Assembly: GCA_965116985.1 (NCBI GenBank)
Contig: OZ220745.1
Coordinates: 2,691,092 to 2,755,091 of the forward strand
Length of the DNA: 64,000 nt
Origin: Dehalococcoidia bacterium
GTDB lineage: Bacteria > Chloroflexota > Dehalococcoidia > Lucifugimonadales > G963668185
Reading direction: 5' to 3'
Position 1 is the first letter of the stretch. Every line of letters starts with the position of its first letter. The translations under genes and the position numbers were made by a program. This document shows positions 14,549 to 57,956 of this stretch, one piece after another. The notes beneath the pieces were generated by a model that searched no databases, was not told where the DNA came from, and saw only the letters and a list, made by a program, of their open reading frames with translations.

Positions 14549-14565
14549 CCCCGTCCTGAGCCCGT

Positions 14566-15030
14566 CGAAGTGGCCCTACGCAAGCCAGCCCTCGCCCCAA
14601 GTCCGCCAAAGCGTAGCCCCCAACCCATTCGCCCTGACCCCGTCGAAGGGCCTTGCCCCGAACACCACCCGCCCCCCAAGTCCGCCAAAGCATAGCCCCC
14701 AATCCGTTCGCCCTGAGCCTGTCGAAGGGCCTTCCGCAAGCCAACTCTCGGCCCAAGTCCGCCAAAGAGCAGCCCCCAACCCATTCGCCCTGAGCCCGTC
14801 GAAGGGGCCTTCCACAAGCCAGCACTCGCCCCAAGTCCGCCAAAGTACCCTTACCCAATCCGTTCGCCCTGAGCCTGTCGAAGGGCCTTACGCAAGCCAC
14901 CTCTCGCCCCTAATCCGCCAAAGCGTAGCCCCCAATCCGTTCACCCTGAGCCTGTCGAAGGGCCTTACGCCGAGCAGCGTCCGCTAGAAGTCCGCCATCC
15001 CTCAGGCGTAGGGGCCGTTCGCGAACGACC
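14566..15030. repeat. tandem array of six composite A+D units, 76-79 bp period
   Basis: GTCGAAG landmark at 14566, 14642, 14721, 14798, 14877 and 14954 (spacings 76, 79, 77, 79, 77). The whole unit is repeated with point variation. There are no unique spacers. Confidence 0.85.
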
Positions 15031-15390
15031 CTCCCAGCAGTACCAACCCACGCCACAACCCCGTCATCCCGGCATTCACACGGCAGCGTGAACCCGGGGC
15101 CAGCCGGGATCCAGAGGGGCGGGGGCATTTCGCCTATCGAACCACTCGCCTCGATCACAGGAATCCGCACGGAACTGTCATTCTGAACGAAGCGAAGCGG
15201 AGTGAAGAATCTAAAGCCGTTGCCCGCAAAACAAGGTTGTTCCCAGACACCAACCCACACACCACAACCCCGCCATCCCCGCACTCCCGCGCCAGCGTGA
15301 ACCCGAGGGCCAGCCGGAATCCAGAGGGGCGGGGCACCCCACGCCCGCCAACACCCTCCGGCGATAGACCCTGCCACAAACCAGCACTCG

Positions 15391-15832
15391 CCCCAAGTCC
15401 GCCAAAGTGCCCTTACCCAATTCGTTCGCCCTGAGCCCGTCGAAGGGCCTTCCGGCGAGCAGCGTCCGCCAGAAGTCCGCCCGCCACCAACCCCCGCCCT
15501 CCAAAGACCACGCGTAGGGGCCGTTCGCGAACGGCCCGCCCAACCACGCGCCACACCGAAGCGTCGACAGGAACCCGTTCGCCCCAAGTCCGCCAAAGTG
15601 CCCTTACCCAACCCGTTCGCCCTGAGCCTGTCGAAGGGTCTTCCGGCGAGCAGCGTCCGCCAGAAGTCCGCCCGCCACCAACCCCCGCCCTCCAAAGACC
15701 ACGCGTAGGGGCCGTTCGCGAACGGCCCGCCCAACCACGCGCCACACCGAAGCATCGACAGGAACCCGTTCGCCCCGTTCGCCAAAGTGCCCTTACCCAA
15801 CCCGTTCGCCCTGAGCCTGTCGAAGGGCCTTA
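15391..15832. repeat. 191-bp higher-order tandem duplication (2 full units plus a partial third)
   Basis: CCCCAAGTCC landmark at 15391 and 15582, with CCCC at 15773. The palindrome module recurs at 15514 and 15705 (191 bp apart). Confidence 0.85.
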
Positions 15833-16053
15833 CGCAAGCCACCTCCCGCCCAAAGTCCGCCCCAGCCCCCACAACAGCCGCGCACGGCCCGTTCGCAAAC
15901 GGCCCACCCACCAACCCCCGCCACACCACAATCCCGCCATCCCCGCACTCCCGCGACAGCGTGAACCCGGGGGTAGCTGGAATCCAGCGGGGCGGGGCAC
16001 CCCACGCCCATCTACACCTGAGCCCTTCCCTCCAAATCCCACCAACCGCCCTC

Positions 16054-16083
16054 TTGACACACTAGTTCTCAGTGACTTAAACT
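16054..16083 (+). promoter_or_regulatory. candidate promoter giving a leaderless mRNA for CDS 16091-17074
   Basis: TTGACA 16054-16059, 18-nt spacer, TAAACT 16078-16083, then only 7 nt to ATG 16091 with no Shine-Dalgarno. The same geometry is conserved at the paralog (56049-56078, minus strand). Confidence 0.45.
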
Positions 16084-16090
16084 AGAACGC

Positions 16091-17074
16091 ATGTATAGCG
16101 AAACGCAGTCCATATCACCAATACAGAGCATCGTCCGAGAAGAGACAAAGGACGGCAGACTCATCGTGCGATTCCTCGTCGCCGCAATGCAGGACGAGAT
16201 TCGCGACGCCAAGCCTCATCACAGGCTCGACGCCGCACGCCAGCTGATCAAGCTCGGCTTCGACGAAGCGAAGGAGTTCGCCAGCATACCCGCGACATCA
16301 CTAAAGCGTGCAGGGCAGCCGAAGCCCGAGGCCGACACCATCGACACCTCCAACCTCAACCCAGACCTAGCGCTCTTCATACGCGCCGAGACCGACGGAG
16401 GCCGCCGGGCCGTACGCTTCCTCGTCGACGTCATGCTCGGATTCATGCCCGGGTTCGGACCGCACCATCGCATAGACGCAGCCAAGGAGCTGCTCCGCCG
16501 CGGCTTCGACGAAGCCCCCGACGACCTACCACTCTTTCCCCAGCCTGCCCTGATCTCGTCGAAGGAGTCTGTCCTGAGCCCGTCGAACGAGCCTGTCCTG
16601 AGCCTGTCGAAGGAACCTGTCGGACCGCAACAGGCGTCCTCTGACGACTCCCTCGCCGAAGCCGACATCCTCCTCGACTACGAACCCCCGTACGTCAACA
16701 CATACGGCCACAGCCGAGACGACGGTCTGAACACCCGAGCAGTCTTCAAAGCGTCGGACGCCCTGATGGACGCCGTCGGCAGGCTCCCGCCGCCCGAGAA
16801 ACCCGGAGCATTCAACCCCGACGAGACGAGCAGCATCATCGTGCACAACGGAACGGAGCACTACTTCAAGGAACACGCGCGCACAGCGGTAGAACTGTCC
16901 ATCGCCGCGGGCGAAGTCATGGACGCGATCAGGCGCATCCGTGATTCATGCCGGACACCCTCCGCCTTCCTCGCCCAAAATACCAAGAAGGACTCCGACC
17001 CCGGGGAAGAACCTGCCGATGACGACGAGAGCCTGTCCCGCCCCCCTCGAGGGAACGCCGACGCTCCCCCCTGA
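16091..17074 (+). CDS. hypothetical protein, paralog 1. Two tandem ~43-aa helical repeats, an internal module-derived 8-aa repeat and an unassigned C-terminal domain
   Basis: 327-aa ORF. Internal repeats DGRLIVRFLVAAM..KPHHRLDAARQLIKLGFDEA and GGRRAVRFLVDVM..GPHHRIDAAKELLRRGFDEA. About 92% nt identity to 55010-56041 over the first 120 nt (9 mismatches counted). Confidence 0.7.
   Translation: MYSETQSISPIQSIVREETKDGRLIVRFLVAAMQDEIRDAKPHHRLDAARQLIKLGFDEAKEFASIPATSLKRAGQPKPEADTIDTSNLNPDLALFIRAETDGGRRAVRFLVDVMLGFMPGFGPHHRIDAAKELLRRGFDEAPDDLPLFPQPALISSKESVLSPSNEPVLSLSKEPVGPQQASSDDSLAEADILLDYEPPYVNTYGHSRDDGLNTRAVFKASDALMDAVGRLPPPEKPGAFNPDETSSIIVHNGTEHYFKEHARTAVELSIAAGEVMDAIRRIRDSCRTPSAFLAQNTKKDSDPGEEPADDDESLSRPPRGNADAPP
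16554..16625 (+). repeat. in-frame 24-nt tandem repeat (3 units) derived from repeat module A, inside the CDS
   Basis: Units at 16554-16577, 16578-16601 and 16602-16625 encode SKESVLSP/SNEPVLSL/SKEPVGP. The paralog has 4 units. Confidence 0.85.
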
Positions 17075-17775
17075 TCCCCACGTCCCTGCCGCAGCGTGAC
17101 CTTCGAACACACGCCGCACATCGGCAAGAAAGCCAGCCCACCCCGCAAACCCGTCATTCCGGTATTCACGCGAAAGCGTGAACCAGGGGCAGCCGGAATC
17201 CAGCGGGGCGGGGCACGTCACGCCCGCCAACACCCTCCGGCAACAGAACCCCGCCGCCCTCCCTCAGGCGTAGGGGCCGTTCGCGAACGGCCCGTCCCAC
17301 CACGCGCCACACCAAAGCGTCGACAGGAACCTGTTCGCCCCCAAATCCGCCAGAGCGTAGCCCCCAATCCGTTCGCCCTGAGCCTGTCGAAGGGCCTGCC
17401 GCAAGCCAGCTCCCGCCCCAAGTCCGCCATCCCTCGGGCGTAGGGGCCGTTCGCGAACGGCCCGCCCAACCACGCGCCACACCAAAGCGTCGACAGGAAC
17501 CCATTCGCCCCCCAAATCCGCCAGAGCGTAGCCTCCAGTCCGTTCGCCCTGAGCCTGTCGAAGGGCCTTACGCAAGCCACCTCTCGCCCCAAGTCCGCCC
17601 CAGCGCCCACATCAGGCCGCGCGCATGGGCCTTTCGCGAACGACTCTCCCTCACCAACGCCCGCCCACCCCGCAACCCGTCAATCCCGTCATTCACGCGA
17701 AAGCGTGAACCGGGGGTTAGCCGGAATCCAGTGGGGCGGGGTCGTCCGCTACTCCCCCTGAGCCCGTCGAAGAAA
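17075..17775. repeat. 0.7-kb mosaic repeat array downstream of paralog 1, abutting the copA 3' end
   Basis: Module C at 17150-17213 and 17685-17741, containing the perfect hairpin TTCACGC-GAAA-GCGTGAA (17165-17182 and 17692-17709). Module B starts at 17270 and 17440. Module A at 17369-17396. Confidence 0.9.
17261..17600. repeat. 170-bp higher-order tandem duplication (2 units)
   Basis: CCCTCrGGCGTAGGGGCCGTTCGCGAACGGCCC landmark at 17261 and 17431. Confidence 0.8.
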
Positions 17776-17786
17776 TGAGGTTAGAG

Positions 17787-54551: not shown

Positions 54552-54698
54552 AACATCGTTTAGGTCGAACGGAACATCAATGCCCCGAGACTCCTAACGG
54601 CGGCAGCCGTTCAAATATTGGGCGGATGGATTCAAGCTGTTGAGCGCGGCTGCTTACCCCTGTAAGCATCGAGGCAGGGGATTGAGAGCCTGCCCTGA

Positions 54699-54909
54699 TC
54701 CCGTCCTGAGCCTGACGAAGGGGCCCGTGCCCCAACCCGTTCGCCCTGAGCCCGTCGAAGGGCCTTCCGCCGAGCAGCGTCCGCTAGAAGTCCGCCCGCC
54801 ACCAATCCCCGCCCTCCAATGACCACGCGTAGGGGCCGTTCGCGAACGGCCCGCCCCGGGACGCCACGCCGGCGAAGTAGAAGCGACCCACACCGCAACC
54901 CCGTCAACG
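54699..54909. repeat. mosaic repeat array (modules A and B) on the 3' side of paralog 2
   Basis: Module A at 54737-54764, module B at 54829-54852. Collinear with the A-linker-B composite seen at 15420-15540. Confidence 0.85.
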
Positions 54910-54928
54910 AATTAGATGACACTTACAA
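54905..54928. repeat. left arm of the inverted repeat bracketing the paralog-2 block
   Basis: CAACGAATTAGATGACACTTACAA. Positions 54910-54928 are the perfect reverse complement of 56628-56646, and the match is 23/24 when extended. It sits in the loop of the hairpin AACCCCGTCA...TGACGGGGTT. Confidence 0.85.
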
Positions 54929-55009
54929 ATGACGGGGTTGTGTTGTGGGCGGGCTCTCTTGCCGGTGCGGCGTGTGTTCGAATGTCACGCTGCGGCAGGG
55001 ACGTGGGGA

Positions 55010-56041
55010 TCAAGGGGGAGCGTCGGCGTTCCCTGGAGGAACTCCTTCGACAAGCCCAGGACGGGGTTGGGACGGGCTCCCGTCGTCATCGGCAGGTTCT
55101 TCCCCGGGGTCCGAGTCCTTTTTGGTATTTTGGGCGAGGAAGGCGGAGGGTGTCCGGCATGAGTCACGGATGCGCCTGATCGCGTCCATGACTTCGCCTG
55201 CTGCGATGGACAGTTCTACCGCTGTGCGGGCGTGTTCCTTGAAGTAGTGCTCCGTTCCGTTGTGCACGATGATGCTGCTCGTCTCGTCGGGGTTGAATGC
55301 TCCGGGCTTCTCGGGCGGCGGTAGCCTGCCTACGGCGTCCATCAGGGCGTCCGACGCCTTGAAGACTGCCCGGGTGTTCAGACCGTCGTCCCGGCTGTGG
55401 CCGTATGTGTTGACGTACGGGGGCTCGTAGTCGAGGAGCACGTCGGCTTCGGTGGGGGAGTCGTCGGAGGACGTCTGTTGCGGTCCGACAGGTTCCTTCG
55501 ACAGGCTCAGGACAGGCTCGTTCGACGGGCTCAGGACAGGCTCGTTCGACGGGCTCAGGACAGGCTCGTTCGACGGGATCTGAGAAGGCTGGGGAAAGAG
55601 TGGCAGGTCGGCGGGGGCTTCATCGAAGCCGCGGCGGAGCAGTTCCTTGGCGGCGTCTATGCGATGGTGCGGCCCGAACCCGGGCATGAATCCGAGCATG
55701 ACGTCGACGAGGAAGCGTACGGCCCGTCGGCCTCCGTCGGTCTCGGCGCGTATGAAGAGCGCGAGGTCGGGGTTGAGGTTGGCGGTGTCGATGGTGTCGG
55801 CCTCGGGCTTCGGGTGCTCTGCGCGCTTTAGTGATGTCGCGGGTATGCTGGCGAACTCTTTCGCTTCGTCGAAGCCGAGCTTGATTAGCTGGCGTGCGGC
55901 GTCGAGCCTGTGATGAGGCTTGGCATCGCGTATCTCGTCCTGCATTGCGGCGACGAGGAATCGCACGATGAGTCTGCCGTCCCTGGTCTCTTCGCGGACG
56001 ATGCTCTGTATTGGTGATAAGGCCTGCGTTTCGCTGGACAT
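55010..56041 (-). CDS. hypothetical protein, paralog 2 of 16091-17074
   Basis: 343 aa with the same domain order. It differs by one extra 24-nt unit in the internal repeat and by a 24-nt module-like net insertion near the C-terminus (55043-66). Confidence 0.7.
   Translation of the reverse strand: MSSETQALSPIQSIVREETRDGRLIVRFLVAAMQDEIRDAKPHHRLDAARQLIKLGFDEAKEFASIPATSLKRAEHPKPEADTIDTANLNPDLALFIRAETDGGRRAVRFLVDVMLGFMPGFGPHHRIDAAKELLRRGFDEAPADLPLFPQPSQIPSNEPVLSPSNEPVLSPSNEPVLSLSKEPVGPQQTSSDDSPTEADVLLDYEPPYVNTYGHSRDDGLNTRAVFKASDALMDAVGRLPPPEKPGAFNPDETSSIIVHNGTEHYFKEHARTAVELSIAAGEVMDAIRRIRDSCRTPSAFLAQNTKKDSDPGEEPADDDGSPSQPRPGLVEGVPPGNADAPP
55483..55578 (-). repeat. in-frame 24-nt tandem repeat (4 units) inside paralog 2
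   Basis: Units at 55483-55506, 55507-55530, 55531-55554 and 55555-55578. Encodes SNEPVLSP x3 plus SNEPVLSLSKEPV. Confidence 0.85.
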
Positions 56042-56048
56042 GGGTTCT

Positions 56049-56078
56049 AGCTTAAGGCATTGAGAACTAGTGTGTCAA
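56049..56078 (-). promoter_or_regulatory. candidate leaderless-mRNA promoter of paralog 2
   Basis: Minus strand: TTGACA (56078-56073), 18-nt spacer, TAAGCT (56054-56049), then 7 nt to ATG 56041. Confidence 0.45.
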
Positions 56079-56627
56079 GACGGTGTTTGGACGGACTTGT
56101 GGAGGGAAGGGTCCACGTCTTGATGGGCGTGGGGATCCCCGGCCCGCTGGATTCCGGCTAGCCCCTGGTTCACGCTGGCGCGGGAGTGCGGGGATGGCGG
56201 GGTTGTGGTGTGTGGGCTGGTACTGCTGGGAGGGTCGTTCGCGAATTGGTCATGTGCGCGGCTGTTGTGGCTGCGGGGGCGGACTTGGGGCGGGAGCTGG
56301 CTTGCGTAAGGCCCTTCGACAGGCTCAGGGCGAACGGGTTCCTGTCGACGTTTTGGTGCGGCGCGTGGTTGGGCGGGCCGTTCGCGAACGGCCCCTACGC
56401 CTGAGGGATGGCGGCGGGGTTCTGTCGCCGGAAGGTGTTGGCGGGCGTGGGGTGCCCCGCCCCTCTGGATTCCGGCTGGCGCCGGGTTCACGCTGACGCG
56501 GTTTTGGTGTATGGGTTGGTTCAACTTCGCCGGCGTGGCGCGTGGTTGGGCGGGCCGTTCGCGAACGGCCCCTACTCCTGAGGGATGGCGAACGGGTCAT
56601 GCGCGGCAGGGGTGGCGATCGGCGGAA
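56079..56627. repeat. mosaic repeat array on the 5' side of paralog 2 (modules C, B, D and A in reverse orientation)
   Basis: Module A (reverse complement) at 56310-56337. Module B (reverse complement) at 56375-56398 and 56552-56575, 177 bp apart. Module C (reverse complement) at about 56130-56190 and 56445-56500. The order is collinear with 15790-16053. Confidence 0.9.
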
Positions 56628-56651
56628 TTGTAAGTGTCATCTAATTTGTTG
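56628..56651. repeat. right arm of the inverted repeat bracketing the paralog-2 block
   Basis: TTGTAAGTGTCATCTAATTTGTTG. Confidence 0.85.
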
Positions 56652-56858
56652 GCAGAATATTCAGAGTTTCCAATGGGGTCGCGGGGAGGCCCGTTGTGTG
56701 CTTGGTGAAATCCGCTGGTTTGTCTAGTCGAGCAGACCCTTCATTCGCGTTGGTTAGGAGAAGTCGCGTCAAACAGTACTGGTGATAAGATGACCTCGCT
56801 GGCACATCCTGTTAGAATCCTGGCTGAATACGGAAAACAAGCGAGAAGTTGAGGGCGA

Positions 56859-57956
56859 TTGCTTCAACGCCTCATAAAACAGGACTCCCCCTCCAAGTCT
56901 AGCGACAGGTCCGCACTCTATGTCGATGTGGATAACCTGCGCGACGGTGCCCAGACCGTTATTGAAGACCTGATCAGGAACTGGCCGTCGTCTATTCCGA
57001 CAGCCGGCAGGCTGTGCCTCTACGTCAGGGCCGAAAACCTCGACCTGTGGGAGATGTGGGCCAAAAGCCAGTTCCCCGAACTGGCCGTGGTGGTCAAGGG
57101 CGTCCAGCATTACAGTTTCCACCCGTCGAAGAACGCGGCGGACATGTCGATCGCGATGGACGCGCTCTCGGACATGATGCTGCGCCGCGCGAACTGGGTG
57201 GTGGTGTTCAGCGACGACAGCGACTTCATCGGCCTGTACGCGAAGGTCAAGGAGATCCACGAGGAGTCCGGCGGCGACGGCCGCAACGCCCCGTTCACGT
57301 GGGTGCTCACGGACCGCAGGGACACTCGGTCCGGAACGATCAGGGACTACTTCCCCAACGATCACGTCTACACGATCAAGTTCCCGACAGGCAGGAGGAT
57401 GTCGCCCGCGCCGGCTCCGACGGCCCGTTCTTCGCAGGGCACTGCCAGGACGCCGGCACGCACATCCCAGGCCGCGCCTAGGCCTTCGCGGGCCGCGCAG
57501 CCCGCTTCCAGGACTGCCCGCACTCCGCAGCCCGCTTCCAGGACCGCCCGCACCCCGCAGCCGGCGCCGAGACCTGCCCGCGCCGCGCAGCCTGCTTCCA
57601 GGCCTGCCCGAAGCGCAGAGGCTTCTCCGACGGAGTGTAAGCACCGCGGCAGGAGCAAGGCCGACGATGACAGGCGCAACGGGCGGATACTCAGCCAGAT
57701 GGCCGAGACCATTCTCAGAGAGGTGCCGGTGGGCTTCTTTGGGAGCGGAGACTGCCAGAAGATCGTGAAGAAGATCTGGCCGGACCACAGCCTGGCGAGG
57801 TCGAGCCCATCAGGATTCGGAACGAAGTTCGCGAACTCGATCCTGCCGATCCTGAAGGAGAAGGGTGTTACCGAGCCCAATCCCAATCGCAGGCCCAGGC
57901 GTTACGAGATGACCGAGGACGCCAAGGGCGCTGCCGCTCGCCAGGGCTCGTCTTGA
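56859..57956 (+). CDS. NYN (LabA/DUF88-like PIN-fold) nuclease domain, Pro/Ala/Arg-rich repeat linker, and an OST-HTH/LOTUS-like C-terminal domain
   Basis: ALYVDVDNL, SKNAADMSIAMDA, VVVFSDDSDFIGL (NYN acidic residues). The C-terminal ...FFGSGDCQKIVKKIWPDHSL...GFGTKFANSILPIL is LOTUS-like. TTG start. Confidence 0.7.
   Translation: MLQRLIKQDSPSKSSDRSALYVDVDNLRDGAQTVIEDLIRNWPSSIPTAGRLCLYVRAENLDLWEMWAKSQFPELAVVVKGVQHYSFHPSKNAADMSIAMDALSDMMLRRANWVVVFSDDSDFIGLYAKVKEIHEESGGDGRNAPFTWVLTDRRDTRSGTIRDYFPNDHVYTIKFPTGRRMSPAPAPTARSSQGTARTPARTSQAAPRPSRAAQPASRTARTPQPASRTARTPQPAPRPARAAQPASRPARSAEASPTECKHRGRSKADDDRRNGRILSQMAETILREVPVGFFGSGDCQKIVKKIWPDHSLARSSPSGFGTKFANSILPILKEKGVTEPNPNRRPRRYEMTEDAKGAAARQGSS
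57434..57614 (+). repeat. about six units of a 30-nt (10-aa) in-frame tandem repeat in the NYN protein linker
   Basis: GCAG landmark at 57497, 57527, 57557 and 57587 (exact 30-nt period), with two degenerate units upstream. Encodes QPASRTARTP-like decapeptides. Confidence 0.85.

Follow-up and report, generated by a model that had tools for sequence, protein, structure and literature searches.

Modules of an abundant intergenic repeat occur in frame in predicted disordered linkers of one multicopy gene family in a Dehalococcoidia bacterium

Introduction

Rickettsia palindromic elements (RPEs) are a described case of repeats that lie inside protein genes. According to the passages on them in PMC10969869, RPEs (Ogata et al. 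2000) are palindromic, ~150 bp long, and found as in-frame insertions in dozens of unrelated protein genes. Coding variable-number tandem repeats (VNTRs), which change by slipped-strand mispairing in bacterial surface and contingency proteins, offer a second comparison. A third is offered by repetitive extragenic palindromic (REP) sequences, which are typically extragenic and not translated. Here we analyze a stretch of 64,000 nucleotides (the window) from a Dehalococcoidia bacterium (assembly GCA_965116985.1, contig OZ220745.1, positions 2,691,092 to 2,755,091), in which two paralogous genes carry a 24-nt coding repeat that shares its sequence with module A, the commonest intergenic repeat of the genome. 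The source genome (G000) is a single contig of 3,218,282 bp with 62.6% G+C and 95% completeness. Our reading is that the linker of a multicopy gene, which is predicted to be disordered, probably acquired a fragment of module A in frame, with the inserts as tolerated passengers.

Two paralogs and their 24-nt coding repeat

The window contains two intact open reading frames (ORFs) of this gene in opposite orientation, separated by ~39 kb (Table 1). In the alignment of the two proteins there are exactly two gaps of 8 aa each; the first falls in the repeat and the second close to the C-terminus. A first-pass annotation of the window had attributed the whole length difference (327 versus 343 aa) to these two gaps and had counted three 24-nt units in paralog 1 and four in paralog 2. 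Both statements were confirmed, the units being recovered as Tandem Repeats Finder arrays inside intact ORFs. In paralog 1, one degenerate unit (CCTGATCTCGTCGAAGG) is followed by two units with the module A core in frame 2, giving the predicted peptide SKESVLSP / SNEPVLSL / SKEPV. Two units of paralog 2 are identical at 24/24 positions, and the DNA alignment of the linkers showed that paralog 2 equals paralog 1 plus one further exact GAGCCTGTCCTGAGCCCGTCGAAC.

The second gap corresponds to a clean 24-nt insertion, GTCCTGGGCTTGTCGAAGGAGTTC, in the tail of paralog 2. The insertion is flanked by CCAACCCC and CTCCAGGG, which align directly with paralog 1, and the 11 unrelated nucleotides previously reported for paralog 1 at this place were an error. 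The module-like insertion itself had been recognized, at 55043-55066, which is ~4 nt off and within the alignment ambiguity. The insertion site is a small tail motif bearing a palindrome, denoted here as module X. In paralog 1 this palindrome, CCCTCGAGGG, is unoccupied and represents the empty site of the module A insertion of paralog 2. The tail DNA alignment showed the same module A variant nested in the module X palindrome in two other paralogs.

Sequence shared with the intergenic module A

The core of module A, CCTGAGCCTGTCGAAGG, is 17 nt long and occurs in the genome 117 times exactly and 279 times with at most two mismatches. Of the 279 copies, 261 are outside the coding sequences (CDSs) of the gene family and 18 are core matches inside them. 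We masked all family CDSs and searched for the longest exact match between each gene segment and the rest of the genome. For the linkers of paralogs 1 and 2 this match was 24 nt, which is the whole unit, and it was intergenic; linkers with a second module gave 27-38 nt. A linker without units gave 15 nt, and segments of the folded domains (300-456 nt) gave 15-19 nt. By arithmetic, an exact 17-mer is expected by chance ~4e-4 times in this genome. The likeness of the coding repeat to module A is beyond chance, and the exact 17-nt core and the 24-nt outside match bear out the earlier statement that the intergenic family and the coding repeat share sequence.

Within the repeat unit, the 9-mer GAGCCYGTC recurs at spacings of 11 and 13 nt. 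The same stutter (CCCTGACCGTGTCCTGAGCCTGTCGAAGGGGCCTGTCGAAGGGCC) is seen in the 98 intergenic copies of module A's T-variant, and 24-nt tandems were found at two intergenic sites. Since the intergenic copies stutter alike, the tendency to duplicate 24 nt belongs to the repeat and not to the gene. Intergenic higher-order units are 77 and 191 nt long and are not multiples of three, so the restriction to such multiples within the gene is a mark of selection.

Folding z-scores against shuffled sequences were -0.38 for module A and +1.0 to +1.15 for the coding repeat, and module A was rejected as a hairpin because it folds no better than shuffled sequence. In the intergenic copies, the base pair beside the core was tallied as C-G (150), T-G (77), T-A (20), and, least often, C-A (8). 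That T-G outnumbers C-A could reflect G-U wobble in RNA of that strand or just as well a mutation bias, the hairpin not being significant.

A gene family with conserved domains and variable linkers

Besides 22 close copies, which are 80-92% identical to paralog 1, a tblastn search of the genome found one divergent copy (57%) and four further relatives that match the family in the N-terminal domain only. The variation in unit number that had been described for two paralogs is real, but there are not two paralogs; 22 close ones exist. All 22 are intact, with codon-usage scores like those of ordinary genes. At dS of 0.12-0.17, the pairwise ratio of nonsynonymous to synonymous substitution rates (dN/dS) across paralogs was lower in the C-domain (0.045) than in the N-domain (0.16), and the family copies are real genes under purifying selection.

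AlphaFold2 predicted two helical repeats with confidence (residues 10-64 and 91-138) and, less strongly, an alpha/beta C-domain (residues 214-287). Residues 69-85, 142-192, and 291-325 had a predicted local distance difference test (pLDDT) score <50 and are predicted to be disordered. The indel zones of the family alignment coincide exactly with these three segments, and all in-frame modules fall in them. Sequence and profile searches with the family protein gave no match in Pfam, PHROGs, NCBIfam, PADLOC, or PDB, and a Foldseek search with its AlphaFold2 model found nothing. The sole functional hint was a weak resemblance to the terminase small subunit, seen on a distant homolog. No RNA family of Rfam was found in the island, and the repeat peptides (LSLSKG, FDRLRANG, and others) brought up nothing relevant in a literature search.

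The four N-domain relatives lie outside the window (G000:C1 ~996747, 1291778, 2087357, and 3142401) and are ~365-400 aa long. Their N-terminal double helical repeat is ~52% identical and is joined to a different C-terminal domain ending ...HWY..ERRFP. Each of the four adjoins a repeat array.

Composition of linkers and tails

The homolog alignment that the first-pass annotation had proposed for counting units gave 0-4 units among the 22 paralogs, with the degenerate first unit included: no unit in twelve, one in two, two in five, three in two, and four in one. On one linker backbone, three paralogs read GGTGAG followed directly by TCTGTCGGACC, whereas two read GAG, then CCTGTCCTGAGCCTGTCGAAGGGA, then TCTGTCGGACC. 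The alleles with and without CCTGTCCTGAGCCTGTCGAAGGGA differ by a clean 24 nt, the junction being GGTGAG/TCTGTC. Every indel in the family alignment is 24 nt or another multiple of 3, in agreement with the earlier claim that the indels keep the frame.

Several intergenic modules other than module A are also found in the genes. The second module, a hairpin (CTTCCCCAGTCTGCTGGGGAAG, z = -5.2), is read as FPSLLGK in a different linker of nine paralogs. The third, a 24-nt block (GAGCCTGTCCCGAGTCCCTCGAGGGA), is read as ACPESLEG in the linkers of four of those nine, and it also makes up the long C-terminal tail, where a different frame gives SLSQPPRGN. This third module is module X, which is either present or absent as a 24-nt block in G3-type linkers. 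Module A itself is read in two frames in one gene, as VLSLSK in the linker (frame 2) and as PGLVEG in the tail (frame 0). Linkers differ between nearly all paralogs. The use of two frames, the nesting, and the presence of several unrelated modules suggest that the DNA-level events were blind to frame and were followed by selection. The 24-nt inserts have no terminal inverted repeats, and their flanks show only an internal direct repeat, YCTGTC. Trees of the N-domain and the C-domain are mutually inconsistent and also disagree with the types of linker and tail, suggesting gene conversion among the copies.

The coding repeat might instead have grown in place by slippage from an old proto-repeat, with its likeness to module A coincidental or convergent. 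In its favor, the no-unit linker already reads GAGTCTGTCGGA, which resembles the core, a degenerate unit opens the G2- and G3-type linkers, and the period-11/13 substructure favors slippage. However, the full 24-nt unit, including GAAGG, which is absent from the no-unit allele, has an exact intergenic match, and an exact match of even 17 nt is hardly expected by chance. In the tail, moreover, this module is nested inside a second kind of module and has a different reading frame. Several unrelated modules from intergenic DNA likewise lie in frame in this genome and in the congeneric genome G003 (see below), and a composite FPSLLGK-plus-X segment suggests module sequence beyond the tandem unit. 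We therefore regard growth in place as improbable.

A further explanation is that the variable repeat is selected, either because the length or composition of the linker tunes the protein or because the module is a nucleic-acid signal in the mRNA or the gene. The 22 copies here and 20 copies in G003 are intact despite frequent indels, linkers vary among nearly all paralogs, and the coding copies retain the base pair beside the core (T-A 10, T-G 7, C-A 1). However, purifying selection on the downstream C-domain explains the intactness, the inserts stem from many unrelated modules, and neither module A nor the coding repeat folds better than shuffled sequence. On this evidence, we see only a small chance that the repeat is selected for a role of its own.

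Repeat arrays around the genes and confinement of the modules to the family

The 22 largest repeat islands of the genome (1.3-3.2 kb) contain one family copy each. Of the 279 module A copies, 160 lie in family genes or at most 2.5 kb from them, a region covering ~5% of the genome, and 119 are far from any family gene. Flanking copies are almost always co-oriented with the family gene (139/142). Around paralog 1, module A heads a 77-nt unit that is repeated 5.3 times at 14555-14970 within the upstream array, and 191-nt and 171-nt units are found at 15388-15831 and 17254-17599. Uptake from the flanking array of the gene itself was considered and is unsupported, as the best exact matches are in other islands.

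No intergenic module was found inside other genes (0 of 1852 other well-scoring CDSs, called outside the family with a crude codon-usage gene finder). The high-copy words in those CDSs came only from ordinary paralogs and from the genes' own repeats, and the ~5 core matches at two mismatches in unrelated CDSs are near the level expected by chance from arithmetic. One source of high-copy words is a giant ORF outside the window (G000:C1:2452139-2476993) of ~8284 aa with many internal repeats (VTVSFEQ...DDDVPSV).

In-frame modules are confined to one family, and the case is not one of genome-wide exaptation. The first-pass annotation had suggested scanning all CDSs for in-frame units; the scan found them in the family but in none of the other CDSs. 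It had also called the module co-opted. The in-frame reading stands, but the analysis found no sign of the use that this word implies, and the modules are found only in predicted disordered segments. Finally, it had envisaged that homologs in related genomes might lack the repeat and that the likeness to module A might be limited to the two loci of the window. Homologs in G003 do carry module A and other modules. Something close to the alternative it had drawn from such a case, local contamination of the ORF by the flanking array, is nevertheless likely in the form of uptake from repeat-rich surroundings, given the restriction to a single family.

A search for the Y1 transposase (PF01797) gave no match in the genome; the same search was positive in 6 of 14 control genomes. 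The sigma-70-like promoter of paralog 1 is kept in paralog 2, where the matching stretch is at ~56049-56078. Because this near-consensus promoter ends only 7 nt before the ATG, the family mRNA may be leaderless, and the upstream array would then fall outside the transcript. A gene of the NYN type next to paralog 2 (ORF 56859-57956, + strand) has an in-frame 30-nt tandem in a linker (57496-57610, 3.8 copies), which reads PQPASRTART... and is unrelated in sequence to module A.

Table 1 Positions of the paralogs, their repeat modules, and the surrounding arrays in the window
Feature	Position	Strand	Description
Paralog 1	16091..17074	+	327 aa; two helical N-terminal repeats, predicted disordered linker, C-domain, predicted disordered tail; ORF, positive codon score
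Paralog 2	55010..56041	-	343 aa; 94% identical to paralog 1
In-frame coding repeat, paralog 1	16542..16621	+	3 units; Tandem Repeats Finder period 24, 3.3 copies, 83% matches
In-frame coding repeat, paralog 2	55487..55577	-	4 units; Tandem Repeats Finder period 24, 3.8 copies, 95% matches
Module A variant nested in tail module X, paralog 2	~55039..55062	-	Clean 24-nt insertion GTCCTGGGCTTGTCGAAGGAGTTC; read as RPGLVEGV
Tail module X, paralog 1	17029..17056	+	GAGCCTGTCCCGCCCCCCTCGAGGGAAC, read as SLSRPPRGN; tail DNA alignment
Upstream array of intergenic modules	14549..16033	+	Six 77-nt module A units co-oriented with the gene; Tandem Repeats Finder, copy-number profile
Downstream array, same module families	17100..17786	+	Tandem Repeats Finder, copy-number profile
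Sigma-70-like promoter	16054..16083	+	TTGACA, 18 nt, TAAACT; end 7 nt 5' of ATG; inside inverted-repeat arm I1
Paralog 2 gene-plus-array block	54556..56786	-	Missing from the same intergenic site in three congeners

Homologs, module counts, and empty sites in related genomes

The congeneric genome G003 (2.78 Mb) contains at least 25 homologs of 348-510 aa. All 20 copies that were fetched are intact, and all 20 carry in-frame modules, packed in three disordered segments. These modules are PLPQSAGASL in 1-6 tandem 30-nt units, PLPQSAGEGRDGV, SVIPAKAGIHPPEP (0-4 times), DPFPSLLGKAGMGS (0-3 times), and NPFVVSLSNH, and the linker peptides include PLPQSAGEGRDG and DPFPSLLGKAGMGS. Module A is nested as PLPQSAGE[EPVLSPSK]GRDGV in the first or second linker of 4 of the 20 copies. 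The linker modules of G003 and metagenome homologs also include SVIPAKAGIH, VLSPSKG, and AEPVEA, and the metagenome homologs add SVRAEPVEAP, VLSPSKGPVEA, SVGAVREPP, and others. Two other congeners, G001 and G002, have one N-domain relative each and no full-length copies.

Module A was counted across genomes as the core with at most two mismatches, for which controls gave 1-6. Compared with the 279 copies in the source genome, G003 has 254, G001 has 51, and G002 has 32. Among genomes of the same order without a family match, 63, 61, and 30 copies were found in G015, G012, and G005, respectively, and control-level counts of 5 and 2 in G008 and G016. Module A is several times commoner where the family has expanded, and its abundance may be linked to that expansion. 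Its occurrence in same-order genomes without the family indicates that the module is wider than the family and independent of it, which favors uptake by the gene.

The opposite direction, in which the intergenic copies derive from the gene and the arrays are decayed or amplified linker fragments, is very unlikely. It would account for the co-oriented arrays that adjoin every copy and for the finding that every intergenic module type occurs in some homolog's linker. However, module A is present in genomes without the family and at the 119 sites far from family genes, the 77- and 191-nt intergenic units are not multiples of three, and two reading frames would be unexpected if the module had begun as coding sequence.

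At the site of the paralog 2 block (~2.2 kb), the flanking genes are 195-261 nt apart in G001, G002, and G003, compared with 2.4 kb in the source genome. Alignment of this one junction showed no target-site duplication and no defined ends. The genes flanking the paralog 1 block (14549-17786) are 0.8-1.0 kb apart in G001 and G002, and the G001 gap as read contains no array; in G003 a distance of 7.4 kb separates them, and no family copy lies in it. The absence of the blocks from the same sites in the congeners checked implies either a gain in this lineage or three losses. In addition, a contig from another sample (L043, ENA ERZ24894577; P0004) has one flank 96-98% identical to G000:C1:2315693-2319700 and carries an IS110 transposase gene and a family copy beside an M20 peptidase gene, where the source genome has only a 0.6-kb array. 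This family copy has one full unit and a PRPELVEG tail.

Such presence and absence of whole blocks could mean that the family protein, or the gene-plus-array block, spreads and builds the arrays as an element without a known transposase, the in-gene modules being by-products. We consider this unlikely. Equally doubtful is the more specific proposal that the block represents a novel type of repeat-associated mobile unit, whose double-helical-repeat protein would recognize the modules and seed or amplify arrays around itself, leaving the linker modules as footprints. An element of this kind would fit the single family copy in each of the 22 largest islands, the arrays beside the four N-domain relatives, and the concentration and co-orientation of module A around family genes. 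It would also fit the high module counts in the two genomes with >20 copies (279 and 254, against 32-51 in the congeners without full-length copies), the empty sites of both window blocks, the near-identical strain with a gene copy where the source genome has only an array, the helical N-terminal repeats with their weak terminase-small-subunit resemblance, and the lack of a Y1 transposase. However, the 30-63 copies in same-order genomes without a family match are well above the control level, so that the family is not needed for module A to exist, and 119 copies in the source genome are far from family genes. Co-orientation and co-location could descend from the duplication of one ancestral block. 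Furthermore, the protein has no recognizable catalytic domain or fold, and the block has neither defined ends nor target duplications.

Probable uptake of module DNA by the linkers

We consider in-frame uptake of a module A fragment by the disordered linker of a multicopy gene to be the probable explanation, judging from the sequences of the genes and arrays. The inserts are most likely tolerated passengers that change linker length and have no function of their own. The modules likely reached the gene by uptake from its repeat-rich surroundings, since they are confined to one family and every copy of that family is inside an array. Module DNA would have entered the linkers by a process blind to the reading frame; the candidates are templated insertion or, at short homologies such as GAGCCTGTC, recombination with the surrounding repeat-rich DNA. 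The number of units would then have changed by replication slippage or unequal exchange, as suggested by the recurrence of GAGCCYGTC within the unit, and the alleles would have been shuffled among paralogs by gene conversion. Selection would have acted as a filter only, keeping stop-free inserts with lengths that are multiples of three in floppy segments.

Several points weigh against this explanation. The no-unit alleles could equally be slippage deletions of one-unit alleles, and the polarity of gain versus loss of units was unreadable from gene trees because recombination makes the N- and C-domain trees incongruent. A degenerate unit resembling module A stands first in G2- and G3-type linkers, so that some of the array could have arisen by local growth of an old proto-unit and not by a new insertion. 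The best outside matches to the linker are not in the gene's own island. No insertion enzyme was found, the genome having no Y1 transposase and the inserts and block junctions no terminal inverted repeats or target-site duplication. In addition, we infer the neutrality of the inserts, and translation of the repeat is predicted from intact ORFs.

Comparison with described repeat systems

As far as the passages in PMC10969869 describe RPEs, they share with module A that a repeat abundant between genes is also found in ORFs, is read through unbroken, and adds a peptide where the fold tolerates it. Unlike RPEs, the unit here is 24 nt long, and module A is not a significant hairpin; only the FPSLLGK module is a strong one. 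The inserts here vary in tandem number, are nested, and have two reading frames, and they are limited to a single gene family whose own copies are embedded in the arrays. The case is a variant of the phenomenon of repeats inside genes known from Rickettsia, dense and restricted to one family.

REP sequences, bacterial interspersed mosaic elements (BIMEs), and REPIN elements with their REP-associated tyrosine transposase (RAYT) also consist of short G+C-rich intergenic modules of several types in mosaic arrays, with a gene embedded among the repeats. However, the genome studied here has no transposase of the Y1 (RAYT/IS200) type, and its modules are co-oriented and not arranged as inverted pairs. 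Unlike MITEs (miniature transposable elements with inverted repeats), the 24-nt inserts lack terminal inverted repeats, and the junction of the 2.2-kb block shows no duplication.

The multiple-of-three unit in a low-complexity segment, the 0-4 units among paralogs, and the identical neighboring units are consistent with coding VNTRs. However, the unit here is a piece of a genome-wide intergenic repeat and is not gene-specific. The family protein also shows no sign of being a surface protein, unlike those that carry surface-protein VNTRs.

Implications

For annotation, our analysis picks out a real gene family from arrays in which many spurious ORFs otherwise arise. The restriction of the modules to one multicopy family that is always inside arrays sets the case apart from Rickettsia, and it raises the question of whether the family protein has any part in the repeats. 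The locus shows plainly how non-coding repeat DNA turns into protein sequence: the same 24-nt piece occurs in two frames, nested, and with tandem gain and loss, in disordered spacers beside tightly conserved folded domains.

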